Part shown: in pieces, positions 259-30,200 of the stretch
Position numbering within the stretch: the stretch's first letter is position 1
Layout: each line of letters starts with the position of its first letter
Source of the DNA: a virus
Strand: one strand, 5' to 3'
IMG/VR virus record: IMGVR_UViG_3300045988_160528
DNA length: 39,849 nt
The notes under the pieces: generated by a model
Databases searched by the model: none
What the model was told of the DNA's origin: nothing
The model's input: only the letters and a program-made list of their open reading frames with translations
Program-made: the position numbers and the translations under genes

Positions 259-293
259 AAAAATTGTCCTTTCGTTGTAGCTTCCTCTAAAAG

Positions 294-344: not shown

Positions 345-350
345 ATTGCC

Positions 351-676
351 AGAAGCAACGAGCATGATCGTGCTTCTGTGCATTGTCAGTTGCCCATACC
401 TCATAATTTACTTTCTTTGACAGCATCGGAGTGTCAACGGGCAACAGGGCACTCCGATGCGATCAGGAAACCCCGGCGAAAGCCGTGTTTCATACAACCT
501 TCTTCCCATATAAGGCGGCGTGGCGAGCGCCGCTTTATACAGGGGGGATGAGAAAAAAGTTGCCGAGTGTTGGTAAGAGAAAGCCGCTCGGCGCGGCTGC
601 TGTGATACGTTGCAATATCATAGTAGCACAAATTACAAATTCTGTCAAGTGCAGAAAAAAAGAAAGGAGTGCTGAT
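351..676 (+). promoter_or_regulatory. Long structured 5' leader of the early operon with no convincing ORF; a candidate attenuator or cis-regulatory RNA.
   Basis: Three hairpins are visible. The first has an 11-bp perfect stem, gcatcggagtg(423-433)/cactccgatgc(450-460). The second is a GNRA hairpin, cggcGAAAgccg (474-485). The third is a GC hairpin, gcggcg/cgccgc (515-533), followed by TTTATAC, which looks terminator-like. The only canonical RBS+ATG is at 663-679. Confidence 0.4.
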
Positions 677-1246
677 ATGAGCACAAACAAGGACATTCGC
701 CACGGCATGATTGACGCGGAACTTTCACTCAACGAGCTGTGCCGCAAAATTGAGGAAAGAAGCGGAGAGAAAACTTCTGCGTCATACTTCACGCGGGCTT
801 TGGATGGGAGATACCACAGCGAGAAGTCAGAGCGTGCGCTGCGCGAGGCGCGGAAGATACTCGAGGAGATCAACGGAGGGGGAGACATTGAGATGAATAA
901 ACGGAAAGAAAACCCGAAGCTTGAGAAGAAACTCGACGAGCTTGAAAAGCGGCTGCTGAATTCTAATTTTGACAAGAAAACAATGGATTTGCCGGACGAA
1001 ATAGTGTTGGAGTACACCAACATGATGCTCGACGCCATAATGCCGCTGAATGGCTTTAAAACAGCGTTTGCGTACGAAGCCGCGATCCATGTGACGAATT
1101 TGCTTGAAGCAAGACTCGGAAACGACGCTGCAATTATAAAAGCGTCAGCGCAACGCAAGCAGATTGTGACGGTGGATAATGTTGTCCCGAAAACAGGAAG
1201 AGGACCGCGAGGCGCGGAAGATACTGAGGAGATCAACAGCAGATAA
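677..1246 (+). CDS. First early protein, function unknown; possibly Cro or antirepressor-like, with a coiled-coil C-terminal half.
   Basis: The RBS AAAGGAG (663-669) lies 7 nt before the ATG at 677. It is the first gene downstream of the switch promoter. It contains an internal 32-nt near-duplicate (841-876 vs 1205-1238). Confidence 0.6.
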   Translation: MSTNKDIRHGMIDAELSLNELCRKIEERSGEKTSASYFTRALDGRYHSEKSERALREARKILEEINGGGDIEMNKRKENPKLEKKLDELEKRLLNSNFDKKTMDLPDEIVLEYTNMMLDAIMPLNGFKTAFAYEAAIHVTNLLEARLGNDAAIIKASAQRKQIVTVDNVVPKTGRGPRGAEDTEEINSR

Positions 1247-1273
1247 TCAGACAAATGGAAAGGAAGTAAGGTT

Positions 1274-1471
1274 ATGTCAAGAGAAAAAGAAGGCTATCGG
1301 CTCTGCCTTGAAGAGCTGAACCGGGTATGTCCGGACAAGCTGCTTTTGTCACGGGGAGATGTGACAAGGGCTTTGGGTATAAGCTATCAGGCTGTCGCCA
1401 AACACTACGGCAAATACTTTGACGGCAGATACATACTTAAGACCGAGCTTGCGAGGGTGATGTGCAAATGA
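1274..1471 (+). CDS. Small HTH DNA-binding protein, excisionase/AlpA-like.
   Basis: The ORF has an upstream RBS AGGAAG. The motif SRGDVTRALGISYQAVAKH is a helix-turn-helix. Confidence 0.5.
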   Translation: MSREKEGYRLCLEELNRVCPDKLLLSRGDVTRALGISYQAVAKHYGKYFDGRYILKTELARVMCK

Positions 1472-1659
1472 AACGACTTTACACATACAAGGACAAGGAA
1501 AAGCTGTATAAGGCGTGCTCGGACGCGCGTGACAACAGAGAAGCGGATGCGTTTGTGGCGCTTCACAGACTCATAGTGGACTGGGGTCTGCTTGCCGACT
1601 ACCAACACTACAGGGAGGAACACAATGAAAACAGCAGAGATGTTAATTGCGGTGCTTAG
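1468..1659 (+). CDS. Hypothetical early protein.
   Basis: The ATG at 1468 overlaps the preceding stop (translational coupling). The RBS is weak. Confidence 0.35.
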   Translation: MKRLYTYKDKEKLYKACSDARDNREADAFVALHRLIVDWGLLADYQHYREEHNENSRDVNCGA

Positions 1660-1831
1660 CCGTATCGCAAATGTGCTTTTGGCGGTGCTTAACGGGGTGG
1701 CATTCATCCTCATAATAGTATCGCTGAGTGCCGTGGGCGACTCGTTCATTCCCGCAGCTGTGATCATCGGATGCATTCTGTGGTTTATGGCGGAGATCGC
1801 AATTCTAAGAATTATATGGAGGAAGGGCTAA
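1625..1831 (+). CDS. Small membrane protein with two predicted TM helices.
   Basis: The RBS GGGAGGAA (1612-1619) precedes the ATG at 1625. The hydrophobic segments are IAVLSRIANVLLAVLNGVAFILIIV and IPAAVIIGCILWFMAEIAIL. Confidence 0.5.
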   Translation: MKTAEMLIAVLSRIANVLLAVLNGVAFILIIVSLSAVGDSFIPAAVIIGCILWFMAEIAILRIIWRKG

Positions 1832-2043
1832 TGTATATATGTGAAAGGTGCGGAGAGATTTTCGACTCTCCCGAAGTTAAAATATGGCGGGATGTTGAGG
1901 AGTTTTGGGGGGCAAGGTGCTACAACGAAACTGCTACATACTACTGTCCGTTCTGCGGCAGTGAGGACATAGAGACGTATTCCGAAGATGATGAAGAGGA
2001 GACGGAAGAAGACAGGATATTCGGAAGGAGGTGCGTGGGATGA
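1831..2043 (+). CDS. Zinc-ribbon protein (CxxC...CxxC) with an acidic tail.
   Basis: The ATG at 1831 overlaps the preceding stop (taATG) and sits after GGAGGAAGGG. The cysteine motifs are CERCG...CPFCG. Confidence 0.5.
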   Translation: MYICERCGEIFDSPEVKIWRDVEEFWGARCYNETATYYCPFCGSEDIETYSEDDEEETEEDRIFGRRCVG

Positions 2044-2543
2044 CGCTTTACGAGCTGGGAGAGCAGTACAGGATGCTGCTTGAAATGTCCGAGGACGAAA
2101 TACCGGAGGATGTACTTGCGGACACTTTGGACGGCTTAAAAGGCGAAATTGAGGCAAAGGCTGACGGTATATGCTGCCTTATCAAAGAGCTTTCGGCGGA
2201 AAGCACCGCCATAAAAGCCGAAGAAGAACGGCTTGCGGCAAGGCGCAAGGCAAAGGACGCTCTGCAGGCAAGGCTCAAGGCTTATCTTTCGAGCGAGCTT
2301 ACCAAGGCAGGCATGAGCGGCTTTGAAAGCTCCAAAAACAAGGTGAGCTTTCGTTCGAGCGAATCTGCCGCGATGATCTGCGGTAAGGAACAGTTTATCG
2401 AATGGGCGCAGAAGCACGGCGATGAATATCTGAAGTACAGCGAGCCTGCGATCAATGTTGCAGCTGTCAAGGCTGCCATGAAGAGCGGTACGGACGTATA
2501 TGGCTTTGAACTGCGCAAAAACGCAAATATTCAGATCAGGTGA
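2040..2543 (+). CDS. Siphovirus Gp157-family protein, the partner of Sak/RecT-type recombinases.
   Basis: The RBS GGAAGGAGG precedes the ATG at 2040 (ATGA overlap). The N-terminus MTLYELGEQYRMLLEMSEDEIPEDVLADTLDGLKGEIEAKADGI matches the Gp157 pattern as I recall it. It sits immediately upstream of the Rad52-like gene. Confidence 0.5.
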   Translation: MTLYELGEQYRMLLEMSEDEIPEDVLADTLDGLKGEIEAKADGICCLIKELSAESTAIKAEEERLAARRKAKDALQARLKAYLSSELTKAGMSGFESSKNKVSFRSSESAAMICGKEQFIEWAQKHGDEYLKYSEPAINVAAVKAAMKSGTDVYGFELRKNANIQIR

Positions 2544-2556
2544 AGGAGGAAGGAAA

Positions 2557-3108
2557 ATGAAATTCAGAAGCTTAACCGAGGCGGACATTGAGTGCCGGGT
2601 ACAGCAGGTCAAACCGAACGGGCTGTCTCTGCTTTTATACAAGAATGCCCGTGTTGACATGGCTATTCTTGATGAGACCGTAGGTGCGGAGAACTGGCAG
2701 AGAGAACACTATGAATGCAAAGGAAATCTGTTTTGCCGGGTCGGTATTAATGTAAACGTCGGCGAATCGGAAGTATGTCCGACGTGGGTATGGAAAAGCG
2801 ACTGCGGCGCGGAGTCGAACACGGAAGCCGAAAAGGGTGAGGCAAGCGACAGCTTCAAGAGGGCGTGTGTCAATTGGGGCATCGGGCGCGAGCTTTACAC
2901 CGCCCCGTTTATCTGGATACCGTCTGACAAGTGCAAGATTGAGGGCGGCAAATGCCGCGACAGTTTTTCGGTCGAGAAAGTGCGCGTTGAGGGCGGCAGG
3001 ATAACCGGGCTTGCCATACGCAACGACACTCTCGGCAAGCGGGTATATGTATACGCACCGGAAAAGGCGGAAAAGCAGGATGGAAGCAAAGATACGCGCA
3101 AGCTTTGA
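2557..3108 (+). CDS. Rad52-family single-strand annealing protein (Sak-like).
   Basis: The RBS AGGAGGAAGG precedes the ATG at 2557. The block EAEKGEASDSFKRACVNWGIGRELY resembles the Rad52/22 family signature. It sits in a recombination module next to the Gp157, NinB and SSB genes. Confidence 0.65.
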   Translation: MKFRSLTEADIECRVQQVKPNGLSLLLYKNARVDMAILDETVGAENWQREHYECKGNLFCRVGINVNVGESEVCPTWVWKSDCGAESNTEAEKGEASDSFKRACVNWGIGRELYTAPFIWIPSDKCKIEGGKCRDSFSVEKVRVEGGRITGLAIRNDTLGKRVYVYAPEKAEKQDGSKDTRKL

Positions 3109-3652
3109 CGAGGATGCGCTCTCTTTCTCCCGAAAGGGGACTCAAAGGCTTACAATTTCGCTGTCTGAGGACTTCAGACGGTACTTTGACGATTTCAAGG
3201 GCAAAGACCTTGACATTATTTTGAAGCCTCACAGAGAGGCTCGGAGCCTCAATGCAAATGCGCTCTGCTGGAAGCTGTGTACGGAGATCGCGAACGTTAT
3301 GAGGCTGTCGAAGGAGGAAGTATATCTGCAGGCGCTCAAGGACTACGGACAAAGCGATGTTATCAGCGTTTTGGACGGAGTTGACATAACCGGCTACATC
3401 AAGTATTCGGAATATATTGGCTCCTCTGCTCTGAGGGGCAAAAGGTTTAACCACTACAAGGTTTACCGGGGATCGTCGGAGTACGACCGCGAGGAAATGA
3501 GCATTTTGCTTGACGGCATTGTGCAGGAGGCGAAAAGCCTTGAAATACCCGTATGGTCCAAAGCGGAGATAGAAGCCATCAAGGAGGCATGGGGTGAAGA
3601 GTGTTTTACAGAAAAAACGCAGATGCCTCATCTGCGGCAGCACGGCGGTTGA
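3080..3652 (+). CDS. NinB/Orf-like recombination mediator.
   Basis: RSLNANALCWKLCTEIANV parallels the lambda NinB block RSLDQNRKLWACLGDVS. The start at 3080 overlaps the upstream gene. The start choice is uncertain; an alternative is 3047. Confidence 0.5.
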   Translation: MEAKIRASFDEDALSFSRKGTQRLTISLSEDFRRYFDDFKGKDLDIILKPHREARSLNANALCWKLCTEIANVMRLSKEEVYLQALKDYGQSDVISVLDGVDITGYIKYSEYIGSSALRGKRFNHYKVYRGSSEYDREEMSILLDGIVQEAKSLEIPVWSKAEIEAIKEAWGEECFTEKTQMPHLRQHGG

Positions 3653-3860
3653 GTGTCATCACGTATTCGAGGGCGCTCACCGCAGCGCCTCCGACAGGTA
3701 CGGTCTGACCGTGTATCTGTGCCGCAGGCATCATGCTCTTGTACACGCGGATGAGGCGCTTAACAGGCGGCTGAAAAGCGAGGCACAGGAAAAAGCAATG
3801 AAGGTTTACGGATTCGGTGACAAAGAATGGCTTGACATATTCAGGCGGAATTGGAGGTAA
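3594..3860 (+). CDS. HNH/zinc-finger nuclease-like protein.
   Basis: The start is a GTG with GGAGG 8 nt upstream. The sequence has a CxxC...HH...C..HH arrangement typical of HNH-type zinc nucleases. Confidence 0.4.
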   Translation: MKSVLQKKRRCLICGSTAVECHHVFEGAHRSASDRYGLTVYLCRRHHALVHADEALNRRLKSEAQEKAMKVYGFGDKEWLDIFRRNWR

Positions 3861-3862
3861 AG

Positions 3863-4078
3863 ATGAAACCGCAATGCAGGCAGGTACTTGACTACATGAA
3901 GCGCAACGGCAGTATAACGGTGCAGGAAGCGTTCAGAGAGCTTTCGGTCGGAAGTCTTACTTCCCGCATATCGGAGCTGAAGGCGGCGGGAATTGATGTG
4001 CGCGGTTCGATGGAGCGCGGCATAAACCGTTTCGGCGACGGAGTTTACTACAAAAGATATTATTTAGGAGGGAATTGA
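3863..4078 (+). CDS. Small winged-helix DNA-binding protein.
   Basis: GGAGG is 5 nt before the ATG at 3863. The sequence ITVQEAFRELSVGSLTSRISELKAAGIDV is HTH-like. Confidence 0.5.
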   Translation: MKPQCRQVLDYMKRNGSITVQEAFRELSVGSLTSRISELKAAGIDVRGSMERGINRFGDGVYYKRYYLGGN

Positions 4079-4081
4079 GCG

Positions 4082-4483
4082 ATGGCGAATTTCAATTTCA
4101 ACACGGTTATTATCGGGGGCAGGCTTTGCGCCGCTCCGGAGCTCAAGACAACGACAAACGGCACTGTGGTCACATCGTTTGATGTGGCGGTATCACGTCA
4201 GGACAACACGGACTTTTTCCGTGTTGTGGCGTGGAAGAATACAGCGGAGTTTGTCTGCAAGTATTTCGGTAAGGGCTCGTCCATATGTGTCAAGGGAGAG
4301 CTTCAGACGCGAAAATACGAGGCAAAGAACGGTGAGAAGCGTACAGCGACGGAGATCGTAGCGCGGGACGTGTACTTTGTGGACTCCAAAGGCGAGAGAG
4401 CGGCGGACAAGCCCGCAAACGATACTCCTGAGTCTCCGGCGCAGTTTGAGCCTATATCGACGGATGAAGAATTGCCGTTCTGA
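4082..4483 (+). CDS. ssb: Single-stranded DNA-binding protein.
   Basis: An OB-fold pattern is present (ANFNFNTVIIGGRL...FRVVAWKNTAEF...GELQTRKYEAKNGEKRTATEIVA). The acidic C-terminal tip is DEELPF. Confidence 0.9.
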   Translation: MANFNFNTVIIGGRLCAAPELKTTTNGTVVTSFDVAVSRQDNTDFFRVVAWKNTAEFVCKYFGKGSSICVKGELQTRKYEAKNGEKRTATEIVARDVYFVDSKGERAADKPANDTPESPAQFEPISTDEELPF

Positions 4484-11186: not shown

Positions 11187-11657
11187 ATGCCGAAACGTGA
11201 AGTAATCCCCGACGATGTGCTTAAAAAATGCATAGACGAGTATGTCAACGGCTCACAGCATATGACCGATCTTGCGGTTAAATACGGAGTTAAGTATCTC
11301 CCTTTGCGCCGAGCTATGATTAACGCCGGGGCAAGCGATCTCGCAAAGCGCAATGCCGCTGTGTCCTCTGCCGAGGTGGAGGCTGCCATGCGTGAGAGGC
11401 GGGAGAGGCTTAACGAGCTGTGCGATGCTCTTATAGAGCGGATTGAGACATATGCGGCAGATGATGAGTACCTTAAGCGCAACCTGCGGCAGCTGACTAA
11501 CTCGCTCAAGGATATTAAGTCCGTGCAGGGCATCGTAACCGATCTCGATCTCCGAGAGCAGGAGGCAAGGATTAAAAATTTGGAAAAAGCGTTTGAGAGT
11601 GACGGTGCGGGTGTTGTTATCAAGATTGAGGGCGGTGCCGACGCATGGAGCGAGTGA
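11187..11657 (+). CDS. terS: Terminase small subunit.
   Basis: RBS AGGAGGG. There is an N-terminal HTH-like region and a coiled C-terminus. It is immediately upstream of, and overlapping, the large terminase. Confidence 0.55.
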   Translation: MPKREVIPDDVLKKCIDEYVNGSQHMTDLAVKYGVKYLPLRRAMINAGASDLAKRNAAVSSAEVEAAMRERRERLNELCDALIERIETYAADDEYLKRNLRQLTNSLKDIKSVQGIVTDLDLREQEARIKNLEKAFESDGAGVVIKIEGGADAWSE

Positions 11658-13024
11658 TCACAATACCGGCGCCGTCTCCCCGGCAGGCGGAGTTTTTGGC
11701 GGCAAAGGCAAAGCACATCGGCTTCGGCGGCGCACGAGGCGGCGGGAAGAGCTGGGCGGTGCGTGCAAAAGCCATATTGCTGTGTCAGCGCTATCCTGGT
11801 ATACGCTGTCTGATTGTACGACGGACGTATCCGGAGCTTGTCAACAACCATATACGCATACTGCGTGAGCAGCTTTACGGGGTCGCCCGGTACAGCGATA
11901 AGGACAAGATACTCATGCTGCCCAACAAGTCAACCATATCATTTACGTACTGCGCCCGAGACTCCGATCTTGACCGCCTGCAGGGACAGGAGTACGACAT
12001 AATATTTTTGGACGAGGCAACGCAGCTGTCCGAGTATCAGATGAGAGCGATTACCGCCTGTATGCGCGGCACAAACGGTCTGCCCAAGCGTATGTATTAC
12101 ACCTGTAACCCCGGAGGACAGGGGCATGCGTATATCAAGCGCATATTTATCGACAAAAAATATGAGGATCGGGAAAACCCGGAGGAGTATTGCTTTATCC
12201 GCTCGCTTGTTACCGACAACAAGGTACTTATGAGGGAGCAACCAGAATACGTAGAGCAGCTTAAGGCACTGCCGCCAAAGCTCCGGAAAGCGTGGCTTGA
12301 GGGCGATTGGAACATATTTGAGGGACAGTTTTTCGAGGATTTTGTTGACGATCCCGATCACTACATGGACGGCAAGTGGACTCACGTTATCGAGCCCTTT
12401 GATGTGCCGCCGGACTGGAAAATATACCGCAGCTACGATTTCGGTTACGCAAAACCTTTCTCGTGCGCTTGGTGGGGTGTTGACCGTGACGGTGTTGTGT
12501 ACCGCATACTGGAGCTTTACGGATGCAACGGCACACCTAATGAGGGACTCAAGTGGGAGCCTGAGCGACAGTTCCAGAAAATTGCCGAGGTTGAGAGGGA
12601 GCATCCGTGGCTGCGCGGCAAGACAATATTCGGTGTTGCCGACCCGTCTATCTGGGACGGCTCCCGCGGCATATCGGTCAATGAGACGGCTGAGCGGCAC
12701 GGTGTTTTGTTTGAGCCGGGCATTAACGACCGTATATCCGGCTGGATGCAGATGCATTACAGACTCGCTTTTGATGAGAGCGGCAAGCCGATGATGTATG
12801 TTTTCCGCAACTGCAAGGATTTTATACGGACTATACCGCTGTTGCAGTACAGCGAGACCAAGCCCGAGGACTTGGACACGGACGGAGAGGATCATATAGC
12901 CGACGAAACGCGGTATTTCCTCATGTCCCGCCCGATATCCCCCGTTCCGGCAAAGCGCAAGGAATTTTGTGTATTTGTCGACCCGCTCGACACAGCTACA
13001 CACATGGAGGTAAAACGTGTTTAA
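11645..13024 (+). CDS. terL: Terminase large subunit.
   Basis: Walker A is GGARGGGKS and Walker B is IIFLDEA. C-terminal nuclease motifs are present (DFGYAKPF, DGEDHIADETRY). Confidence 0.9.
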   Translation: MERVITIPAPSPRQAEFLAAKAKHIGFGGARGGGKSWAVRAKAILLCQRYPGIRCLIVRRTYPELVNNHIRILREQLYGVARYSDKDKILMLPNKSTISFTYCARDSDLDRLQGQEYDIIFLDEATQLSEYQMRAITACMRGTNGLPKRMYYTCNPGGQGHAYIKRIFIDKKYEDRENPEEYCFIRSLVTDNKVLMREQPEYVEQLKALPPKLRKAWLEGDWNIFEGQFFEDFVDDPDHYMDGKWTHVIEPFDVPPDWKIYRSYDFGYAKPFSCAWWGVDRDGVVYRILELYGCNGTPNEGLKWEPERQFQKIAEVEREHPWLRGKTIFGVADPSIWDGSRGISVNETAERHGVLFEPGINDRISGWMQMHYRLAFDESGKPMMYVFRNCKDFIRTIPLLQYSETKPEDLDTDGEDHIADETRYFLMSRPISPVPAKRKEFCVFVDPLDTATHMEVKRV

Positions 13025-14912
13025 TTTACGCAAAAAAGAGGACAGTGTTAAAAATATGCCCATAGGCAGAGACGAGGTGCGCAAGGCAGCAGAAATACTG
13101 TCAAAGTACAAGAGCGCCAAATCGCACCTTGAGGCGAGGATCATCGAAAATGAGCAGTTTTGGAAGCTCAAGCAATGGCAGAGCTACAACGAGGTGTCCA
13201 AGCATGACATGCGCCTCGCCTCCGCGTGGCTCTGGAACACCGTGGTATCAAAGCGGGCTGACTATATGGACGCCTTCCCCGAGCCAAACATCCTGCCGCG
13301 TATGCCGGATGATGAGGCTGAGGCACAGCGGCTTACCGATGTTATCCCCGTTATACTCGATCAAAACGGATTTAAGGAGGTATACCGCGACGTTGTTACC
13401 TACAAGCTCAAGCAGGGCACCGGAGTATACGGTGTGTTTTGGGACTCGTCCAAGCACAACGGCGTAGGCGACATTGCAATCAAAAAAATGGATCTGCTGC
13501 GCCTGTTTTGGGAGCCCGGCGTAATCGACATACAGGACAGCGCAAACGTTTTTGTCGTTGACCTGGTTGACAATGATGTGCTGCAGCAGATATATCCGCA
13601 GCTCAGGGACAAGCTCAAGTCCAACGAGAGCCTTGTGTCAAAATACATATATGACGATACGGTCGACGCAACAAACAAGTCTTGTGTTGTGGACTGGTAC
13701 TACAAAAAAAGGTCAGGCTACAAATCGGTTTTGCATTTTTGCAAATTTGTGGGCGACGAGGTTTTGTATGCCACGGAAAACGATACGGAGCTGCCAAAGC
13801 ATTACATTACGGACGAGTACGGCGAGCTGACCGAGCAGCCCTACGGCAAGCCTCGCAGTGAGCGCGGATGGTATGAGCACGGCAGATATCCCTTTGTTTT
13901 TGACACTCTCTTTGACATAGAGGGCAGCATTGCCGGATACGGATACTTTGACTACGGCAAGGACACGCAAAAAGAGATCGACATTATCAATCAGGCTATA
14001 GTCAAAAATACTGTCTGCGGAGCAAAGCCGCGATATTTTATCAAAGAAAACGGCGCGGTAAACGAGTCGGAATTTGCCGACTGGCAGAATGATTTTATCC
14101 ACACGGGCGGATCTCTCGGACAGGACAGCATAAGACCTGTTGATTACAGTTCTCTCAGCGGCAATTATATTACGTTTCTGGATTACAAAACAGGTGAGCT
14201 CAAAGAGGTAACCGGAAACCGAGACGTTAACAACGGCGGTACAAGCGGAGCCACGGCCGCCAGCGCTATAGCTGCTATGCAGGAGGCGGGATCAAAGCAG
14301 AGCCGTGACGGTATATCGGCTACATACGAGGCATACAAGCAGGTTATTTATCTCGTTATTGAGCTTATGCGCGAGAAATACGACACCATGCGGTATTTCC
14401 GCATACAGGGGCAGAGCGGCGAGCCTCAGTATGTAGAGTATTCCAACGCTGACTTGAGAGCGCAGCCGCAGATGAGCGCGGCAGGCGCTGACATGGGACT
14501 GCGGATGCCCGAATTTGACATTGACGTTACGGCGGAAAAATCAAGCGAGTACACCAAAATGGCGCAGAATGAGCTTGCCCTGCAGCTTTACGGACTTGGC
14601 GTATTTAATCCGCAAAACGTCGACCAGAGCCTTATGCTGCTCGATGCGATGGATTTTTACGGCAAGGACGATATTGCACAGAAAATCAGTGCGAACGGCA
14701 CTATGCTTGATCAGCTTATGCAGTATCAGCAGATTGCGCTGACACTGGCGCAGAAATACGAGCCTCAGACAGCTGCGATGATAGCAGGCAGCATACAGCA
14801 GTCAGCTCCGCAGATGCAGCAGGCGAGTGTAAGCGTATCGGGCAATGCGGCGGAGGATACACGCATGCAAAAGGCACGTGATGCCGCACAGGAGAGGACG
14901 CAGCCGAGATGA
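13017..14912 (+). CDS. Portal protein.
   Basis: A 631-aa protein directly after terL, with a GTG start and GGAGG 6 nt upstream. Size and position are typical of a portal. Confidence 0.7.
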   Translation: MFNLRKKEDSVKNMPIGRDEVRKAAEILSKYKSAKSHLEARIIENEQFWKLKQWQSYNEVSKHDMRLASAWLWNTVVSKRADYMDAFPEPNILPRMPDDEAEAQRLTDVIPVILDQNGFKEVYRDVVTYKLKQGTGVYGVFWDSSKHNGVGDIAIKKMDLLRLFWEPGVIDIQDSANVFVVDLVDNDVLQQIYPQLRDKLKSNESLVSKYIYDDTVDATNKSCVVDWYYKKRSGYKSVLHFCKFVGDEVLYATENDTELPKHYITDEYGELTEQPYGKPRSERGWYEHGRYPFVFDTLFDIEGSIAGYGYFDYGKDTQKEIDIINQAIVKNTVCGAKPRYFIKENGAVNESEFADWQNDFIHTGGSLGQDSIRPVDYSSLSGNYITFLDYKTGELKEVTGNRDVNNGGTSGATAASAIAAMQEAGSKQSRDGISATYEAYKQVIYLVIELMREKYDTMRYFRIQGQSGEPQYVEYSNADLRAQPQMSAAGADMGLRMPEFDIDVTAEKSSEYTKMAQNELALQLYGLGVFNPQNVDQSLMLLDAMDFYGKDDIAQKISANGTMLDQLMQYQQIALTLAQKYEPQTAAMIAGSIQQSAPQMQQASVSVSGNAAEDTRMQKARDAAQERTQPR

Positions 14913-15169
14913 TAGAGGTTATCTACGACCGTGATGTGCCGTCAATATCGGCGAGCGGTCATGCAGGGTATGCTCCCGCCGGGCAGGATATAGTCTGCGC
15001 GGGAGTATCCGCACTGCTTGAAACTCTTGCAATGTATGCGACGGATGTACATGACAAGGGCAATTTTGTAATATCCGGCGGAGATACTTCTCTTTACGAT
15101 TTCGCCGCCGGAGGAATTGCCGAAATTTCGGAAAAATATCCCGAAAACGTGATTATCACCTATGTGTGA
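14909..15169 (+). CDS. prp: Prp-family cysteine protease (YsxB/DUF464-like), phage prohead processing type.
   Basis: GHAGYAPAGQDIVCAGVSAL matches the Prp catalytic His/Cys region. It sits between the portal and scaffold genes. Confidence 0.8.
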   Translation: MIEVIYDRDVPSISASGHAGYAPAGQDIVCAGVSALLETLAMYATDVHDKGNFVISGGDTSLYDFAAGGIAEISEKYPENVIITYV

Positions 15170-15223
15170 TATCTCTTTATAATCTACACAGAGTCACGGG
15201 CTTAACCCGGAGAAAGGATTTTT

Positions 15224-16093
15224 ATGAAGAAATTCGATTTACAGCTTTTCGCGGAGGAAAGCGCAGGCGAGGCGACAGGTGCGGTTATGAGTACCGCAGA
15301 TGCTGCCGGTATGCCGGTCGCCGACGGCGAAGCTGCGGGAGCACAGGCAGTCGATACTGCCGGCGCAGGGACTCCCACGGCGGATGAAAGACTTCCCTAT
15401 GACCGTATACGCGAAATGTATGCGGAGGACATCAACAAGACGGTAAAAAATGCTGTTGAGAAACGCCTCAGGCGGGAAAAGGACGCACAGGGCACGCTAA
15501 AAAAGCTGCAGCCCCTTGTAGACCGCGCTGCCAAAAAGTACAGCAAGGATGCAAAGGACATTGACGCTATTATGGCTGCCGTAAGTGCCGACAGAAGCTA
15601 TTACGAGGAGCTTGCCGAAAGAAACGGCACAACCCCCGAGATTGAGGAAATGCTTGAACGCTCGGCAGCAGAGGCAAGAAGCGCCCGCGAAGCTCTCGAA
15701 GAACGGGAGGAAGCGGACAGAAACCGTGAATTTGCCGAAAGAATAGGACGTCAGGTATTGGAAGTGAGAGAAAGGTTTCCCGATTTCGATCTGCAGACGG
15801 AATTGGACTCGAATCCTCAGTTTGCCAAGCTTGCTCAGAATCCGTCGCTGTCTCTCCTTGACGCATACAAGGCTACCCGATTTGACGAGGAAATAGCCAA
15901 GGCGATGCAAAACACCGCTCATGCCGTAGAAGCGAATGTTGTAAACAACATCCGAAGCGGCGCACAGGTAGCGGAAAACGGTCTCGGAAACACACCTCCT
16001 GCAACAGTTAAAAAAGATATTTCAAAACTGTCTCTCTCGGAAATACAGGAATACATAGAGAGAGCAAGGCGAGGAGAAGTTGTAACATTCTGA
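15224..16093 (+). CDS. Scaffolding protein.
   Basis: An acidic, Ala/Glu-rich helical protein upstream of the capsid gene. Its N-terminus is MKKFDLQLFAEES, which looks like a Prp cleavage motif. Confidence 0.65.
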   Translation: MKKFDLQLFAEESAGEATGAVMSTADAAGMPVADGEAAGAQAVDTAGAGTPTADERLPYDRIREMYAEDINKTVKNAVEKRLRREKDAQGTLKKLQPLVDRAAKKYSKDAKDIDAIMAAVSADRSYYEELAERNGTTPEIEEMLERSAAEARSAREALEEREEADRNREFAERIGRQVLEVRERFPDFDLQTELDSNPQFAKLAQNPSLSLLDAYKATRFDEEIAKAMQNTAHAVEANVVNNIRSGAQVAENGLGNTPPATVKKDISKLSLSEIQEYIERARRGEVVTF

Positions 16094-16120
16094 GCTTTTC
16101 CCCGCAGAAAGGGAAAAATT

Positions 16121-17140
16121 ATGTTTACTTTTAATCTTCAGAGATTCGCAGTTCTTACACCTACTGTAGGTACATACGGCGTATCAAACCTTAACGGCAC
16201 AACAAACTCTACTACCGGCAACAATCTGTCTGCCGAAATGAAAACCTTTTACAACACTGCTCTGCTCGAAAATGCAAGGGCAAAGTATGCGTTTAACCAG
16301 TTCGGAAAGAAGCAGACACTTAAGCCCGGAAGCGGAAAAACCGTTGAGTGGCGCAGGATGAAAACCTTTGCGGCTGCAACCACTCCTCTTGTAGAGGGTC
16401 TTATCCCCGACGGCAACAAGCTTGATGTATCCACCATCACCGCAACCGTTCAGCAGTACGGAGACTACACTCCCCTCACCGACGTTGTAATGTGGGCTGC
16501 GGTTGACCCTCTGCTTTCAGAGACTGTCAACGAGCACGGTGATCAGGCTGCACGTACACTCGACATTCTCACTCGTAACGTGCTGCTTACCAACACAAAC
16601 GTGTACCGCGTCGGCGGTGCCGCGAATAACAACGCGCTTACGGTTGCAAACGGTAAAATTACCGCGACTGATGTTGCAAGAGCCGCAACAATTCTCAAGC
16701 AGCAGAACACTCCCACCATAAACGGTGACTTTATTGCTATAATCCATCCTTCCGTTGCTTACGACCTGAGACAGGACAGCGGATGGGTAGAGGCACAGAA
16801 ATACGCTAACCCCGAAAAGATATACAACGGCGAAATAGGCAAGCTGCACGGAGTGCGCTTTATCGAGACCACGGAGGCAAAGATCGAAAAGAACTCTGCC
16901 ACCGCTCCTATTTCCGTGTATCATTCGTTCTTCTTCGGCAAGGACGCTTTCGGCATCGTAGAGCCTACCGGAATGACCATGAAGACCATTATAAAGTCTG
17001 CCGAGGAAATCGGCGGTCCTCTTGAGCAGTTCGGCACCTCCGGCTGGAAAGCCATGCATGTGGCAAAGGTTCTTTATCCCGAGAGACTTCTTGACGTTAT
17101 CTCTGCTTCTACGTTCTCGGCAACGGACAACGAAAACTGA
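16121..17140 (+). CDS. Major capsid protein.
   Basis: A 339-aa protein after the scaffold gene. Its N-terminus is MFTFNLQRFAVL, which looks like a Prp cleavage motif. Confidence 0.7.
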   Translation: MFTFNLQRFAVLTPTVGTYGVSNLNGTTNSTTGNNLSAEMKTFYNTALLENARAKYAFNQFGKKQTLKPGSGKTVEWRRMKTFAAATTPLVEGLIPDGNKLDVSTITATVQQYGDYTPLTDVVMWAAVDPLLSETVNEHGDQAARTLDILTRNVLLTNTNVYRVGGAANNNALTVANGKITATDVARAATILKQQNTPTINGDFIAIIHPSVAYDLRQDSGWVEAQKYANPEKIYNGEIGKLHGVRFIETTEAKIEKNSATAPISVYHSFFFGKDAFGIVEPTGMTMKTIIKSAEEIGGPLEQFGTSGWKAMHVAKVLYPERLLDVISASTFSATDNEN

Positions 17141-21225: not shown

Positions 21226-24200
21226 ATGGCATTTGAAGCAACAAAGAATTTCAAAAAGAAATCCGCAGGCGGAAGATTTGAGGCTACAAGCAATTTCGGT
21301 GTGGACGATACTGTAATATCATCAAGGGTTAACGCAATTTCCAAGGATATAGAATCGCTTTACAATGACTATTACAAGGATTACACCGAGCGCAGCAAGT
21401 ATGTTTTGGGAGTTGACAGCAAATATGAAAATATGCAGGCTCCCGGACTCAAGGTATCCATGCAGAGCTACAAAGACCGTGCAAAAAAGATAAAGCAGAG
21501 CATTGAGGACAACAAGGCTTTTCTGACTCCGGAGGGTTATCTTGCCGCTCTGCAGAATGTCAACTCGATTATTGATACCGACACGACCGAGGACGACAAG
21601 ACTTTCAGCGATTATTTCAACAGTTCGGCAGCCGCCGGCGGACGGGATAAATTCAACAAAATCGTCGAGGAAAGAGCAGCGGCACAGAGTGCGCTTAAAA
21701 AAGCGGGACTTAACGAAAACAGCAAATACAGAGATATCGAAGCCGCTCTTTCCGACAGAACGATCGATGCGGGAGCAGCCCCCGATGAAATGGGACAGGG
21801 GCGCAGATATCAGGGGAGAAAGCTGACATCTGAAGATAAAGACTATCTTTCTTCACTGCTGCTGACGGAAGACAAAGTGTCTACCATGACAGACGATGAA
21901 ATACTCAGAAAAATCAAAGATAAAGGCAATCCGTCATACAAACAGAAAATCGCTTTGGGAGAGATCGACAGACTCACAAAGAGGAATGAGGAGTTAATCA
22001 AACTCGCCGAAGCCGATGGGAATGTGTCTTCATTCAATCCTTACGGAGATTACGCGGAAGAATACGCAAATAACCAGCAGCGTATGGAAAAGCTGCGTAA
22101 TATGATAGACAATGATTATGCCGGACGCGATGTAGCGTATTACTACACAGACGACAACGGCAACTCCGGCGCCATGTCATGGGAAAATCTGTACTATGAG
22201 CGCAAGGTCGGCAACGCATACAAAGCGGCGACTGATAAGGGATACGGAGGATACAACAGTGCAGCCGCAGCAGCATACGATGAAATCAATTTTATTGAAA
22301 AAGTCACGGATGCAATGCAGTGGCTTTCGGAAAACAGCACTGTAAGTGCCGAAAAGAAAAAGCCGTACCTTGATATTGTCAAAGAATATGACGAAAAGTA
22401 CGGAACAAACTATGCCAAAGAAGACGGAATATACAGCATTGAAACCAAGAACCGGATAAACAGTGAAATTAAGAACAGCGATGCGTTGAACAAGCTGAAA
22501 GAAAATTTTAAAAGCGAGTCCGGGGCGACTTATGACGCTGTTAAAGACTACGCAAAGCTGCAGCGGGACAAGGAAAGAGCGGCAAAAGTTCAGGAAACAG
22601 TTCAGACGGCAGTTGAGGGAGTGAACAGCGTTCCCGTTGTCGGTAAGGCTCTCGGCGGAATTGCTTCGGCTATTTCAGCCGTGCCGTTCGCTCTTGTCTC
22701 CGGCACCGATTATATTTTCAACCTTATGGATTCTATAGGGCACAGCGACTACAACAGCGATAGTTTTCGCCCGATTAACACCTATGATGATTATGCCACA
22801 AACATATCCGGCGAAATCATCGGAGCCCAGACGGAAATATACGACAAAGCAATGCAGGAAGCAGGTGTTTCCGAAAGGGCAAGAAAATTCTGGACAAGCA
22901 CATACAGCGGGGTTTCATCCGGAATCAACTCGCTGGCTACCGTTGTAGGATCGTGCTATGCATTCGGTCCCGCGGCAGGTCAGGTTGTCGCAAGCGTTAT
23001 TCTCTCCGGGCAGGCTGCTTCAAGCGGTCTGCAGGAGGCTGTTCAAAACGGTTCGACTACGAACGAGGCGCTGGCATACGGTTTTGCCTCCGGTGTTGCC
23101 GAATATCTCGGCGAGAAAATATCAATAGGTTCGCTCGTTGACAAATTTCTCGAAAGCAGCTTTGACGTTACAAGCTTCAAGTCGTTCATGAAGTCTTTTG
23201 TAAAAGATAAAAATCTGCTGAAAATGCTGGGACAGGGCGCGGTTGAGGGCAGCGAAGAAGTAGTTACCGAAATCATGAACCGCTTCTCTGATGCTGTCAT
23301 AAATCAAGATCACTCAAAGTTCTCGAACGCAATACTCACCTATGAGGCGGAAGGACTCAGCAGAGAGGAAGCCAAAAAGAAAGCTTTTCTTGATGTGCTC
23401 GCTTCTGCCGCAGAGCAGGCTTGGGGTGGCTTTGTGGGCGGTATTATGGGCGGTACTGCTGCTGTTATCGGAGGGGGAGTCTCCGCAGCCCGCAACAGTG
23501 TTGCAGACATAAAAAATCAGACCGATATCGGAAAGTCCATTGCGGGAACGGATGCGGGGAAAAATGTGCTTGAAATCGCTGAAAAGCGAGGTTTTGACAT
23601 ATCCAAAGCCTCAGAGGAAGTGCCCGAAGGCCGCGGCGTAGGAAAGCTTGTTTCCAAGGTCAGAAACGCGGTTCGGAACAGAAACATGGGCAAGCTTGCA
23701 CAGAATGTTGTCGAAGCCGAGCTGAAAGCGGCAAAGGAAACGGCAATGCCTATTGTGAACAACAATGAAAGCCTTGCGGAGATGGTTGCCGAAATCGCAA
23801 CCGGCACCGCCGATGTCAGCGCCATTTCCGCTCTTTCCGCAAACGGCGTTCTTACAGAGGAAAACGTCGAAAAAGTTTTTGAGGCTCTTGAAGCCGTACA
23901 GAAGCGCACAGAGACTTCCGAGGTGCGCAATATGATCAATGATATTGTCGAAACCAAGGAGTCATCCGAAGGAAAAGCCTACAACGCAAGCAGCATATAC
24001 GGCATTAAGCGAGAGGGCGGCAAAACAAAGTACATACTTGAAGACGGCACAGAGGTTGACAGCGGCGAATTCGGTCTTACATCAAAGGACAAAACGCTGT
24101 TTGTCAATGCCGTAAAGGGTATGACCGACGCAGAAGCAAACGAGATGATAAGCGCATACCGCAAGTATGCAAACGGCACTGACAAGGGAGTGTTCGCTAC

Positions 24201-27200
24201 AACGTGGGGACTGTATCGCTCTCTCGGCGAGACCGGAGCGGCAAAGAACGGCGAACGTGTAGCAGGGTATAAGAGCAGAATATATTTCACGCAGAATGCC
24301 GAAGTCAACAACGTTCTTGTGACCTCCGCTATCGAGCAGGGAGTAAAAGCGAGAGCACAAAGCGAAATGAAAAGAAACATCAAGGCGAGAGCCGAGCGAG
24401 TTATTCAGGAAAGAGGACGCGCAAAGGGCGAGGTGCGAGGAGAAGAACATCTCGGCAAAAACAAAAGCGGAGCGAAAAATGTTGCACGCACTCTGGCAAA
24501 GCTCGGATATGACGTTGAATTTCTTTCGGAGGACGCAAAACTGCACGGAAAGCGCATTGGGGATACATTGATAAACGGTGCGTATGATGAGAAGACCAAC
24601 ACAATATATCTGCGAGCTGATGCAACATACAACGCAACCGATGTGCGCGGAATTCTCGGTCACACACTCGCGCATGAGGTCACGCACTCCATAAAGGTGT
24701 GGAGCGAAGCCGATTACAACGTACTGACAGACTACATCCGCGATGCTTTGGATGCTGATTTTGACGCGCTTGTTAAGGAAAAAATGGACAAGCTCGGCAT
24801 GAGTTATGCCATGGCATCCGATGAGGTCATTGCGGACGGATGCGAAATGCTGCTGCGCGACAGCAAGGCGCTTGAAAAGCTTGCTATGGAAAACGCAAAT
24901 CTGTTTGTAAAGGTAGTCACGAAGGTACGGGAATTTATCGCAAATCTTCGTAAGGCGCAGACGGATATGTACGACGGCAACGAGGAGCTGCACGATGCAG
25001 CGCTGAAGCTCAGAGAAGCGCTCAAGAGCCTTGAGGAGGTACAGGAGGTATTCGACAACGCTCTTGAGAATTCCATACGGAACATGAGAAACGCTCTCGC
25101 CGAGGCGGAGAACGCGAAGACGAGAGAAAATCTTGATGTCCTCGAAAAGCAGGCGGAGAAAGAGGGGCTGCAGCTGTCGGAGGAAACAGACGACAAATAT
25201 GATTTTACAAAATCATTTGCCGAACAGGTTGAGGATTTTAAAAACGGTAAGTTTCCTCAATATGATACCCTCCTTGTAGGTGGAACGCCGCAAAAGTGGC
25301 AGTCTGTAGGTTTTAATGCATTGCCTGTTACTTTAAATCAAACTCATGTGGATTATGCTCTTAACGGCACAAAGAACTTTAACCACACTATAGGCGAAGC
25401 GTTGCTGAAAAACCTGCCGGAAGCTATAAAAGACCCTATAGCAATTATTCAGTCTCAGTCGAAGGGGCATTCTGACCGTGCAATGGTGATTTTCGATTTC
25501 AAGCACAACGGCAGCCAAGTAATCAGCGCGATAGAGATAGACGGTACCGGACGTACTAACAATATCGTAATTGACAGTAACGCCATGACTACTATCTTTG
25601 CAAAAAAGAACAGCCTCTCACAATTAAAAAGCGCCATTGAACATACAAACAAAGGCGCAGTGGAATTGTTCTATTGGGATAAAAACAGAGCCGTGACGTT
25701 ACTACAGAGGGCTGGGCTCCAATTGCCCAGTGCCCTGCCTCACGACGGCTCTGTTAATAGTATACGCGATTCAAAGTCAAATGTCAAGACAAAATTTGAA
25801 AATGTAACCGAAACGCAGCAATTTAAGCGCTGGTTCGGAGATTGGCAAAAACATCCGAGCAAAATAAACCCGATATTCTTAGACGCTGACGGCAAACCGA
25901 AGGTGTTTTATCACGGCGCAAAAAAGAACGGCGGATTTACAGTTTTCAGAAATTGGCAGTATTTCACCGACAAGAAATCTTATGCCGAGCGATATGCCGA
26001 GCGAGGCAACAGCAAAGCACTTTACGCTGTGTATCTTACCGCTGACAAAGTTTTTGATACAAGGGATGCGCAGGCGCGTGACATCTATAACAGCATTCGC
26101 AGCGAATACGGGCTGAGTGAACTCCAGGATACAGGGCTTCCCGACTGGACTGACGGATACGACATAAGTGAATATCTTGATGAACATCCGGAGCTCGGTT
26201 ATGATGCCATCATACTTGACGAAGGCGGCGATCTCGTAGACGGAAAACCTGTCAGCCGCGGACTGAGCATAGTCGTTAAGGACTCATCACAGATTAAATC
26301 CGCAACTGACAACATCGGGACGTTTGACAAGGGGAATAAGGATATCCGTTATTCGGAGGAAACCTCCGAACAGCGCGAAAACGCTCTTACGTCATTCACC
26401 GACGATGATGTTAAAAAATATGTGAACAAGGCTGTCAGAAGATTTCATACCACATACTCGCTGAAAAAGGCTGCATATCTGACAACGACCGGGTCAATGC
26501 TTGATTTCAGCGACGGTCAAGGTTACAGAGTACAGGATCACAGAGAGATTTCAGATATTCTTGATTTGCCTGATGATGCGGGATATTCCGACGGCATGAT
26601 TTATTTCATGAACATGGGTAACATCCGTCTGCAAACTTACGGCATTGATATAGCCGCTATGCCTAATGCAAAGCAGGTCTCTATGCTGAGAAGCATTATT
26701 CCGTCTATAATGCGTGAAAACGACGGATTCTATCTTGATGTTTCTGACAGCAGAGGCAACAATGTTTTCAGCAGAGAGTACGGAGAGGGCACTTCTACGT
26801 CAAAAATTATTTCTGATATACAGAATTATTTCAAAGACGGCACCATTCCGAAAGAACAGTCTGATTTGAGGGAATTTATGTTCTCTGAGGAGACCTCCGA
26901 AGAATTTGCCGAAAATGAAAAGTCTGCAATTGAAAAAGCCCTTGCAAACATGTCTGTGAAGGATTATAATAGACGCGGATGGTTAAGGACGCTTCTTACA
27001 AGAGAAGATGCGTCAAAGCTTTACTCTGCCGTCGCAGAGCTTTTCGCAAACAAAAAGCGCAAGGAATTCCGACTCAAGGACGGCAGCTATGCTGTTGAGG
27101 TCAACAACAAGATAATATTCGTTTCAGGCACATTTGAAAATCCGAGGTATGAATCGGTGTTGGTTTTCAACACAGACAATGCAACGGATATGGAGGCACT

Positions 27201-30200
27201 GAAATACTATTTTTTCGGAGATACTGCAACAAACGATTTAACCGTAAAAGATATTAAGCGTTTTATCAACCAAAGGAGAAACTATGGACAAGTTTACGGA
27301 TTCAATGGTGAAGATTACAAAGCGAGTGGGAAGCGCGACTTCGGACGAGCAAAGCTTCGAAACGGCACAAAAGGGTTTGGAGATATTTCACAGTTCGAAG
27401 TCCGAGACGGAGTATATACAAAGGATGAAGGAAACGTTTCCTTACGCGTTCAAGGACTGAAATTCTCTGAAGAGACCGAAACATCAAGGGATACCCTTGT
27501 TTCTGACATGGAAGCTGTTGCCGAGACGGATGAGGAAAAAAGCTTTGTCGAAAAGCTGAAGTCTGAGGTTAAGAAAGCAAACGCTTTGCAGAAGGAGCTT
27601 GCCGAGACCAACAGGAAAATCAAGGAAATCTCTTTCACCAAGGGTACGGACAGGAGCGCTCTTCCCTCCCTGAATGAAGAAAAGGAGCGTATTGCCAAGA
27701 AGCTCAACCGGCTTGACAGCAAATTCTACGGCTACAGAGGATACGACACCTTCAAAACTCTTGCCGAGAGAAAATCGAAAGAGGCTGTTATTGCGGAGAA
27801 GCTGCGTTCAAAAGCCGCCCTGCGCTCACAGAAGCAGAAATATCAGGAAGCGGCGCAGGGCATAAAGGACACGCTTGCGCAGCGGGAGGAAAACCGCAGA
27901 CGGCGCGAGATCGTTCGGGACATTGCGAAGCGCATCGATAAGCTTGACAAGCTTGCCAAGGAAGACAGCAAGACAAAGCACATCCCCAGTGCTCTGAGGG
28001 ACATTGTTAAGGCGTTCCGTGAGCAGATAGACTCACGGACTCAGAATTACGATGAACGCATTGCAAGGGCTGAGAACGCAATTGTCAGCCTTGAAAAGCG
28101 GCGAGGGAAATACCTTGATGCGTATACAGAGTATACTCAGCTTGCGGAGCGCATAAAGCAGTATGACAAAGGCTCAAAGGATTATGCCGACGCAGACGCG
28201 CGTATGGGGCAGCTCAAGCAAGACTTTGACAGTTACAATTCTCTTACGGAGCAGATAGAGAAAAAGCTTTCATCTATCGAAAAGAGCGGTGAGAGAAATG
28301 TCAGAGCCGCGGACTATCTTTCCGAGATGCTTTCGTACTACAAGACATACGACAATGCGGACAGCACTTATTACATTGACGTATCCGATCTTGCGCGAGC
28401 AATTGAAGATCTGCGACACTCAATCGGGGAGAGACCCTTGTATCTGCTTACCGCAGACCAGTTGGAAGACGTTCTTGCCGTTACCAAGGCAGTGCAGAAA
28501 AAAATCTCGGACGCGAACAAGCTTTTCAGAAGCAGCCGCAGCGTTTCGGAGACTACCGCGAAGGTAGCGGGAGAGACAAAGGACGCAAGAAACAAAAAGG
28601 TTTCGAGAAGCGACTTTGTGCGAGGTGCAAAAGACCGCACGGCGAACATGCTGTTCTGGAACAATCTGAAGCCCTATGAGCTTTTCAAGCAGTCCGGCAG
28701 CGATACACTTTATCAGCTCTACCGCAATCTGCAGAGAGCCGAAGGGGACAGCGGCAGGCTTATACTCAAGTATGCGGATAAATACAGAGAAACGGCGCAG
28801 AAATACGGTATCAAGGAAAAAATGTTCAACCAAAAGTTCGACATTACATTTGATAACGGAAAAACCGCCCGGCTCACCGGCGGCGAAATACTGACGCTGT
28901 ATCTCACCGCCAAGCGCGGACAGGGTCGGGTCCATCTGCTCGGAGACGGCTTCAGGCTTGAGGGCGGCAAGATGCGTTTGGTGGCAGACGGCAAAGAGAC
29001 AGTCTATGCCAATGCGGATATGATGACGCTTACGGAGAACGATCTTACCAAATTCGGGAAGACGCTCAGCGACGACATGCGCCGCTTCGGAGACGAGATG
29101 CAGAAATACATGTCTACCGAAATCGCAGCGGACGGCAATGCTGTTTCCATGAAGCTTTACGACATCATGCTTTTCGGCGAGGATAACTATATAACTCTGA
29201 CGGTTGACAACAACTATCTCAGGAGTACCATAGACCCGAAAAAAAATACCGCAAAGCTCAAAAACAGCAAGTTTACCATCAAGACCGTTGCCAATGCGAC
29301 GCAGGCGCTCTCTATCTCAAGCTTTGTTAACGTATATCAGACTCATGCATCGGATATGGCGGCATACGCTGCGTTTACACTTCCACTTGAGGACATTACA
29401 AAAGTCATCAACGGCACATCAAAGTCCGAGGATGGCAGTACAAGAGTGCGCGATGTTCTCGGCTCAAAGCTGTACGGCGAAATGATGAAGTTCCTTACGG
29501 ATGTAAACGGCGGTATACGAAGCGACGGAGATTTGGCATATATGCGGCTGTTCAGCGCGGTGAAGGCTGCGCGAACGGGACTGAATTTAGCTGTTGCAAT
29601 TCAGCAGCCGTGCGCTGTCATGCGTGCTTTTGCGGAAATCAATCCGAAGTATTTCATAGGCGTAAAGGCAAAGACCATGTCGGAGGCGCAGCAAAGAAAA
29701 TCTCTTGCCGAAATGACACAGTATGCCTCTACATGGGTGGTCAAGCAGCTCGGCGGTGTTGACATCAACACCAAGCAGTCTATAGGCAAAACCATTACAG
29801 ACCTCGGCGCAAAAGGAAACACCTTCGGTCATACAGCTGCAAAGGGGCTGCAGGAGGGTCAGTTCTGGGTCGCGGAAAAACTCGACCAAGTCACATGGAT
29901 GTGGATATGGAACGCCTGCAGAAACGAAGCGATTGATAATTTCAAAAAATCCAACGCAGACTATACCTACAAGGATGTGCTCAAAAAAGCGGGAGACCGC
30001 TTTGATGAAATCACAAACAAAACACAGGTATACGACTCCATATTCGCCCGCTCCAAAATAATGAGGGACGGAAAAGCGTTTGAGAAGTTTATCACTCAGT
30101 TCATGGCAGAGCCTATGACCACGCTGAATATGGTTTATGACGGAGTTCGTCTCTTGCTGAACGGAGAAAAAGGAAAAGCTGCAGGAATTTTTGCAAGCCT

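Follow-up and report, generated by a model that had tools for sequence, protein, structure and literature searches.

Does a phage whose head proteins begin with a motif resembling the cleavage site of ribosomal protein L27 also make the protease that would cut there? The question is raised by IMG/VR virus record IMGVR_UViG_3300045988_160528, a stretch of 39,849 nucleotides (nt) that we analyzed at its full length and call the window. Its head module lies on the + strand, with the gene order large terminase, portal, an 86-amino acid (aa) protein, a 289-aa scaffold-like protein and a 339-aa major capsid protein (Table 1). A preliminary description of the locus proposed that the 86-aa protein is a protease of the Prp type, the cysteine protease that processes L27, and predicted Prp-dependent trimming of the N-termini of the two proteins that follow. 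We find that the 86-aa open reading frame (ORF), here called prp, encodes a Prp-family protein with an intact active site, and that in related phages the protease and the motif vary together. It is probable that the phage enzyme removes a nine-residue tag from both head proteins, and very likely that some enzyme of the Prp family does so.

The 86-aa protein belongs to the Prp family

The protein contains SGHAGYAPAGQDIVCAGVS, exactly as had been quoted for its catalytic signature. It scores 52.6 bits with PF04327 (Peptidase_Prp) against a gathering cut-off of 27, with model positions 1-89 of 90 covered, and it matches phrog_4478 'peptidase' with an E-value of 6.6e-16. A phmmer comparison with PDB sequences places His18 opposite the catalytic His22, and Cys30 opposite the catalytic Cys34, of the Staphylococcus aureus enzyme (SaPrp), so that the conserved Cys and His anticipated in the preliminary description are present on proper alignment. 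G17, H18, A19, G25, D27, I28, V29 and C30 show no variation in an alignment with 46 homologs, and the conservation of S34 is at least 90%. G17, H18, A19, G25, D27, C30 and S34 correspond to SaPrp G21, H22, A23, G29, D31, C34 and S38, of which G21, H22, D31, C34 and S38 are mutation-sensitive, with structural roles assigned to A23 and G29 (PMC9405229).

The fold agrees with this assignment. An AlphaFold2 (AF2) model has a predicted local distance difference test score (pLDDT) of 89.8 and the bbabbab topology (b, β-strand; a, α-helix) described for SaPrp in PMC9405229, the elements being E2-7, E12-16, H26-41, E46-49, E53-56, H60-76 and E81-85 (E, strand; H, helix). A Foldseek search of the PDB returned Prp chains (S. 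aureus, S. mutans, S. pneumoniae and T. maritima) for all of the top 12 matches, with E-values from 1e-6 to 8e-5 and query TM-scores (TMq) of 0.70-0.82. The best match is 7kld_B (E 1.3e-6, TMq 0.82), and the first non-Prp match has an E-value of only 0.047. Judged from sequence and model, the 86-aa ORF is a Prp-family protease with an intact active site, for which peptidase activity is predicted.

The ATG of prp overlaps the stop codon of the portal gene in the ATGA at 14909-12, as read from the sequence, and the two genes are therefore probably translationally coupled. P22-portal head modules are also the setting of the two closest Prp homologs with inspected contigs, neither of which belongs to an rplU-rpmA operon. 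Since both of the long-contig Prp homologs that were looked up proved to be in phage head modules, the published L27 consensus was used for comparison with the host type.

Two head proteins carry an L27-like tag

The capsid protein is assigned to the N4-gp56 family by the equivalog model TIGR04387 (236.1 bits against a cut-off of 60, residues 31-324), with further matches to phrog_1357 (1.6e-69) and PF25209 (2.8e-11). Its ORF starts MFTFNLQRFAVLT. The 289-aa ORF starts MKKFDLQLFAEES. In a single-sequence AF2 model of the latter, of low confidence (pLDDT 62), the acidic residues 1-58 are disordered and nearly all of the remainder is helix. Comparison with the phiFL3A scaffold gp47 revealed no similarity, and phrog_13908 is the only family match. 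We call the protein scaffold-like, since its position and modeled helical architecture fit this role, without homology to a characterized scaffold.

The beginnings MKKFDLQLFA-EES (scaffold-like protein) and MFTFNLQRFA-VLT (capsid protein) that were given earlier are exact. The L27 consensus is MLxx(D/N)LQ(F/L)F'A(S/H)KK, where the prime marks the cut, and the propeptide of S. aureus L27 is MLKLNLQFF|A, nine residues (PMC9405229). In phage 80alpha, LNLQ(F/H)F|A is where the host S. aureus Prp cuts both the scaffold (SP) and the capsid protein (CP), the site reading KFNLQFF'ADQS in the former and KLNLQHF'ASNN in the latter. The scaffold-like tag KKFDLQLF'AEES fits the L27 motif at P5, P4, P3, P2 (Leu), P1 and P1', and the capsid tag FTFNLQRF'AVLT fits at P5, P4, P3, P1 and P1', with Arg at P2. 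The resemblance to the L27 and 80alpha motif noted before is thus borne out at P5, P4, P3, P1 and P1' in both. The (S/H)KK of the motif at P2'-P4' is unmatched, being EES in the scaffold-like and VLT in the capsid protein, and the P2 Arg of the capsid tag is not F or L. These positions are not needed for cleavage, because the proven 80alpha substrates deviate there too (P2 His; DQS and SNN). With the predicted scissile bond at F9|A10 the Ala belongs to the mature protein, so the propeptide has nine residues and not ten. Both phage tags are thus equal in length to the propeptide of S. aureus L27.

L-Q-x-F-A occurs at just two sites across the six frames of the 39.8-kb genome, and these are residues 6-10 of the scaffold-like and capsid proteins. 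The count by itself is unremarkable; shuffled sequences have a mean of 1.25, and two or more sites occur in 35/100 shuffles. The raw count is not significant alone and was dropped as a test. It is the placement that exceeds chance. Each site lies in the reading frame of a head gene, occupying its codons 6-10, and the two genes are neighbors that come just after prp; for this placement we estimate a probability below 1e-4 even allowing any two of ~50 genes. The two copies are written in different codons (TTA CAG CTT TTC GCG and CTT CAG AGA TTC GCA), from which it follows that the conservation is at the level of the protein.

The module is conserved in relatives

A first set of ten relatives comprised seven IMG/VR contigs and three metagenome-assembled genome (MAG) contigs (Clostridia bacterium, Ruminococcus sp. 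and Acutalibacteraceae). The order portal-prp-scaffold-capsid and the tag on both proteins are kept in 10/10, at capsid identities down to 42%. A profile-based scan added 80 loci (there are at least 408 capsid relatives in IMG/VR), and the counts that follow are on non-redundant loci. Where at least 2.5 kb lies upstream of the capsid gene, prp is present in 44/48 loci, always upstream of the scaffold gene. Both proteins carry [LIMF]-Q-x-[FL]-[AGS] in 36 of the 44 loci with prp.

We aligned 55 non-redundant capsid N-termini on the predicted site. The information content is 2.1 bits at P6, 2.3 at P5, 3.6 at P4, 3.5 at P3, 2.8 at P2, 4.1 at P1 and 3.2 at P1', and the flanks of the tag have ~1 bit at most positions. 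P6 and P2 had no part in locating the site.

Some loci depart from this arrangement. In L076 the 5 kb upstream contain no prp, neither the scaffold nor the capsid protein has a propeptide, and the capsid protein starts approximately where the others would start after cleavage. L090-L092 are likewise without prp; their scaffold begins directly with the 'mature' end (MEGEF...), and a degenerate tag, GFQFFA|D, is left on their capsid protein. These three loci may be an intermediate in the loss of the module.

In L061, L063 and L082 an ORF of 1316-1319 aa (at about 40-4000) lies directly upstream of the scaffold gene and has an N-terminal C-5 cytosine DNA methylase domain. A Prp domain hidden within this 1316-aa ORF was considered and rejected; the DNA methylase domain was the only one detected.

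Protease and substrate covary at P3

In the structure of SaPrp with substrate, D31 and Gly29 make hydrogen bonds to the P3 Gln (PMC9405229). The phage Prp has Asp at the equivalent of D31, three residues before the catalytic Cys (Cys-3). Among 38 phages in which both substrates have the P3 Gln, this Asp is present in 36. Of the six phages that lack such a pair, five are without the Asp, and in all five the Gln has been lost from both substrates. The corresponding 2x2 table (36/2/1/5) has a Fisher p = 1e-4, which is not corrected for phylogeny.

The five variant phages (L022, L045, L079, L085 and L094) have the P3 Gln replaced on both substrates of the same genome, the pairs of tags being DLYRF/DLYRF, NLRMF/NLRMF, NLSLF/NLKLF, NLHLF/NLRLF and NLTLF/NLRLF. 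Their Prps have lost the G-x-D before the catalytic Cys and are still Pfam-positive. This looks like co-evolution of protease and substrates away from L27 specificity. Of the available arguments that the tags are read by the enzyme of the phage, rather than by that of the host alone, the covariation is the best. From the comparison of relatives it suggests that the cognate protease is the phage Prp.

A proposed mechanism

We propose that the phage has a self-contained head-maturation module, for which it would make its own minimal Prp-family cysteine protease. The enzyme would recognize both the scaffold-like and the capsid protein through the sequence [F/L]-[D/N]-L-Q-x-F|A at their very start and cut between Phe9 and Ala10, taking nine residues off each and leaving mature proteins that would start AEESAGE... 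and AVLTPTVG..., respectively. By analogy with SaPrp, the nucleophile would be Cys30, paired with His18. The flexible loop would be held by Asp27 and Gly25, which would also bind the P3 Gln, and Ser34 would position the scissile bond. As in 80alpha, the tag on the scaffold itself may matter more for folding or assembly than does its removal.

Alternative explanations

Several observations weigh against removal of the tags by the phage enzyme. We found no experimental demonstration of cleavage by a phage-encoded L27-motif Prp, from this phage or any other, in the accessible literature. The protein is a trimmed form of Prp with a shortened β3-β4 hairpin, most homologs having 95-120 aa and a longer hairpin. 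All 11 NCBIfam Prp equivalog models (NF0111xx; YsxB) give scores far below their cut-offs, the best being NF011134 with 38.4 bits against 185; by these sequence models it is not an equivalog of the cellular ribosomal-processing Prp. In SaPrp the substrate pocket depends in part on dimerization, its P4/P6 portion being built at the interface of the homodimer. The covariation at P3 represents about three independent lineages, and there are exceptions (L009, L010 and L071). A Prp and a long L27 are to be expected in the presumed Clostridia host itself, so the phage copy is not obviously required. In L061, L063 and L082 the tags persist although the 5 kb upstream contain no prp gene, and there the host enzyme can presumably serve, which is the situation in 80alpha. 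In that phage, moreover, cleavage of the scaffold and capsid proteins is dispensable, while an intact scaffold N-terminus is essential.

A first alternative is cutting by the ribosomal Prp of the host, the phage copy then being redundant, a booster of dosage, or directed to another target, for instance the L27 of the host and the maturation of its ribosomes. In its favor, the tags agree with the L27 consensus of the host type, every Firmicute with a long L27 has a Prp according to the literature, 80alpha depends wholly on the host enzyme, and three loci retain the tags with no prp nearby. Yet prp is retained upstream of the scaffold gene in nearly all of the related head modules, some of the loci without it have lost their propeptides (L076) or partly lost them (L090-92), and changes in the loop of the phage Prp track those at P3 on both substrates, which would be unexpected if it were the host enzyme that mattered. 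We therefore regard the host enzyme as an unlikely agent of most of the cleavage.

It would be distinctly improbable, in our estimation, that the tag is mainly a signal for binding, folding or assembly, that the Prp-like protein is chiefly a chaperone or assembly factor, and that cleavage is incidental or absent. That 80alpha needs the scaffold N-terminus for assembly but can dispense with cleavage of either protein is in keeping with such a role, as is the suggestion that SaPrp is a chaperone for L27 (PMC9405229). However, a pure binder needs no Cys/His dyad, and the catalytic and essential residues are kept across diverse homologs; P1 Phe and P1' Ala are among the most conserved positions of the tag, as expected at a scissile bond. 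That the resemblance is due to chance, or that the protein is a decayed and inactive remnant of a Prp, would agree with the number of LQxFA sites being no greater than in shuffled sequence, and with a short protein that fails the equivalog cut-offs. Chance and decay are effectively refuted by where the tags lie, by their persistence in relatives at 42-90% identity, by a Prp fold modeled with confidence and by an active site that does not vary, and we find this explanation scarcely credible. Cleavage by the phage-encoded Prp is the explanation that we prefer.

Comparison with known systems

The closest parallel is S. aureus Prp, of MEROPS family C108 in clan CR, acting on 80alpha. The protease family, fold and essential residues are the same, the motif is again (D/N)-L-Q-x-F|A at the extreme N-terminus, and the scaffold and major capsid protein cut in 80alpha have their counterparts here in the predicted substrates, a scaffold-like and a major capsid protein. 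The S. aureus gene, however, is a host gene lying between rplU (L21) and rpmA (L27), whereas here it is a phage gene between those for the portal and the scaffold-like protein. The S. aureus protein has 106 aa as against 86, with 26% identity. Furthermore, 80alpha is a siphovirus, unlike the podovirus-like phage of the window with its P22-type portal and N4-type capsid.

Streptococcus phage Cp-1 provides a phage-encoded example. According to Martin et al. 1998, as cited in PMC12445089 and PMC9405229, its C108-family protease takes the first 48 residues off the major head protein. Cp-1 is a podovirus of a Firmicute whose own Prp-like cysteine protease trims the N-terminus of the major head protein, as is predicted for the podovirus-like phage analyzed here. 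The product of its orf13 has a TGHG...C signature, and scores 18.5 bits with PF04327, below the cut-off of 27. The systems differ in that the Cp-1 cut site, ...ARINH|ATV by count on the translated gene, has no L27-like motif, its scaffold is without a tag, and the protease gene is far from the head genes.

Four cultured phages, namely Enterococcus phiFL3A, Lactococcus TP712, Oenococcus Krappator27 and Dorea DO134P1 (PHROG 4478), have prp just after the portal gene and tags of the form x-N-L-Q-x-F-A on both scaffold and capsid proteins, as here. The proteases are gp45 (DUF464) in phiFL3A, orf36 (Prp) in TP712 and a Prp annotated 'peptidase' in Krappator27, and the tags are LLNLQFFA and KMNLQIFA, KFNLQRFA and KFNLQRFS, and LLNLQRFA and FINLQRFA, respectively; those of DO134P1 are MANLQLFA and KLGLQVFTA. 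The propeptides of these phages are ~12-20 aa long, in contrast to nine here, and in phiFL3A, TP712 and Krappator27 a MuF-like minor-head gene intervenes between prp and the scaffold gene. The portal of phiFL3A is annotated as SPP1-type and its scaffold, the sole cultured-phage scaffold compared, is unrelated to that in the window, which suggests that the module moves between different sets of head genes. In the Dorea phage (L013, OP172779.1) the intact prp ORF, at 4001-4282 just upstream of the scaffold starting MANLQLFA, is unannotated in GenBank.

The classical prohead proteases (HK97 gp4/S78, T4 gp21/U9 and the ClpP-like S14) are likewise encoded by phage genes next to those of the scaffold and capsid, and trim head proteins. 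Their fold is unrelated, and they are serine enzymes rather than using Cys and His. They are packaged into the procapsid during assembly, and their digestion of the scaffold or delta domain is extensive; here a nine-residue tag alone would be removed, with no sign of packaging. No classical prohead protease (S78, U9, U35 or ClpP) was found among the head-module ORFs scanned, from the terminase gene to 17803, Prp being the only protease family present.

The concept is already established through the action of host Prp on the 80alpha head proteins and through the phage-encoded C108 protease of Cp-1. The module is a clear further example of known trimming of head proteins and not a new mechanism. 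In the literature covered, the Prp papers that we found deal with the host enzyme (80alpha, L27 and inhibitors), together with one MEROPS review that names Cp-1, and there was none analyzing phage-encoded L27-motif Prps or the prp modules of cultured phages; the founding paper, Wall et al. 2015, lies outside it. That paper may already mention phage-encoded homologs of DUF464.

What is extended is the reach of the scheme. Demonstrated so far only with the host enzyme in 80alpha, the combination of Prp and L27 tag can now be traced to temperate podovirus-like phages of gut Clostridia, a group that is large and uncultured and supplies its own minimal 86-aa enzyme. The pair of protease and tag is small and apparently specific, and can be cleanly tested in Escherichia coli, which has neither Prp nor a long L27 and leaves the 80alpha proteins uncut. 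The relatives with altered motifs constitute a natural series for the manner in which the P3 specificity of Prp is set, which is relevant in that Prp is pursued as a target for narrow-spectrum antibiotics. The phage tags mimic L27 exactly, including the nine-residue length, so that the phage enzyme could also act on host pre-L27 or compete for it; that phage-borne Prp and its two tagged substrates form a portable, co-evolving protease-tag pair acting in this way is an idea we hold to be quite unlikely. If it were true, capsid assembly would be linked to maturation of the host ribosome, or the phage would be freed from the host supply of Prp during the burst.

The phage genome

The first and last 84 nt of the window are an exact direct repeat (1-84 = 39766-39849), so the window is a circularly closed, complete phage genome with a unit of 39,765 bp and no host flank. 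The tyrosine integrase and the Cro/CI-type helix-turn-helix (HTH) protein indicate that the phage is temperate. Neither an integration site nor a host was recovered, as the contigs encoding an identical integrase are all ~40 kb. The features are collected in Table 1.

Table 1. Features of the head module and of other regions of the window, with the evidence for each
Feature	Position	Strand	Evidence or remark
Large terminase	11645-13024	+	
Portal, P22-type	13017-14912	+	PF16510 P22_portal 4e-36; phrog_156 9e-82
Prp-family cysteine protease, 86 aa	14909-15169	+	Pfam PF04327 / MEROPS C108
Active-site segment	14957-15010	+	G17-H18-A19...G25-Q26-D27-I28-V29-C30...S34
Catalytic His18 codon (predicted)	14960-14962		
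Catalytic Cys30 codon (predicted)	14996-14998		
Scaffold-like protein, 289 aa	15224-16093	+	Position and architecture; phrog_13908 (function unknown) 5e-44
Predicted scaffold propeptide MKKFDLQLF, 9 residues	15224-15250	+	Predicted cut F9 (15248-15250) / A10 (15251-15253)
Major capsid protein, N4-gp56 family, 339 aa	16121-17140	+	TIGR04387, phrog_1357, PF25209
Predicted capsid propeptide MFTFNLQRF, 9 residues	16121-16147	+	Predicted cut F9 (16145-16147) / A10 (16148-16150)
740-aa protein	17812-20034		Matches phrog_511 'internal virion protein'; downstream of capsid gene
Polyvalent protein, 3356 aa, single ORF	21226-31296	+	phrog_22978, function unknown; downstream of capsid gene
Collagen-repeat, tail-fiber-like gene	31358-32455		Downstream of capsid gene
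Tyrosine integrase	37544-38530	-	
Cro/CI-type HTH regulator	38540-38959	-	

The preliminary description spoke of a podovirus-like Clostridial phage. The first part of this stands. There is a P22-type portal and an N4-type capsid, and no match to tape-measure, tube or sheath families was found among the large ORFs scanned (the small ORFs having been scanned in part), which makes the label podovirus-like reasonable. Clostridial would apply at the level of the class, the capsid homologs at 42-54% identity on the three Clostridia MAG contigs suggesting a host among the Clostridia. The phage is a mosaic of podovirus lineages, combining an N4-gp56 capsid protein (TIGR04387), a P22-type portal and a protein that matches phrog_511 'internal virion protein'.

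Downstream of the head module an amidase endolysin is also encoded. The 3356-aa ORF occupies a quarter of the genome, with a MuF C-terminal domain at residues 1383-1488 and an ART-PolyVal ADP-ribosyltransferase domain at 1553-1700; we term it a polyvalent protein because of these two domains, and ~3000 of its residues are without domain assignment. Within the collagen-repeat fiber-like gene there is a 42-nt tandem duplication (31749-31832), the copies of which are 90% identical. Upstream of the head genes, a recombination module at 2031-3108 on the + strand encodes Sipho_Gp157 (2031-2543) followed by a Rad52/Rad22-family annealing protein (2500-3108).

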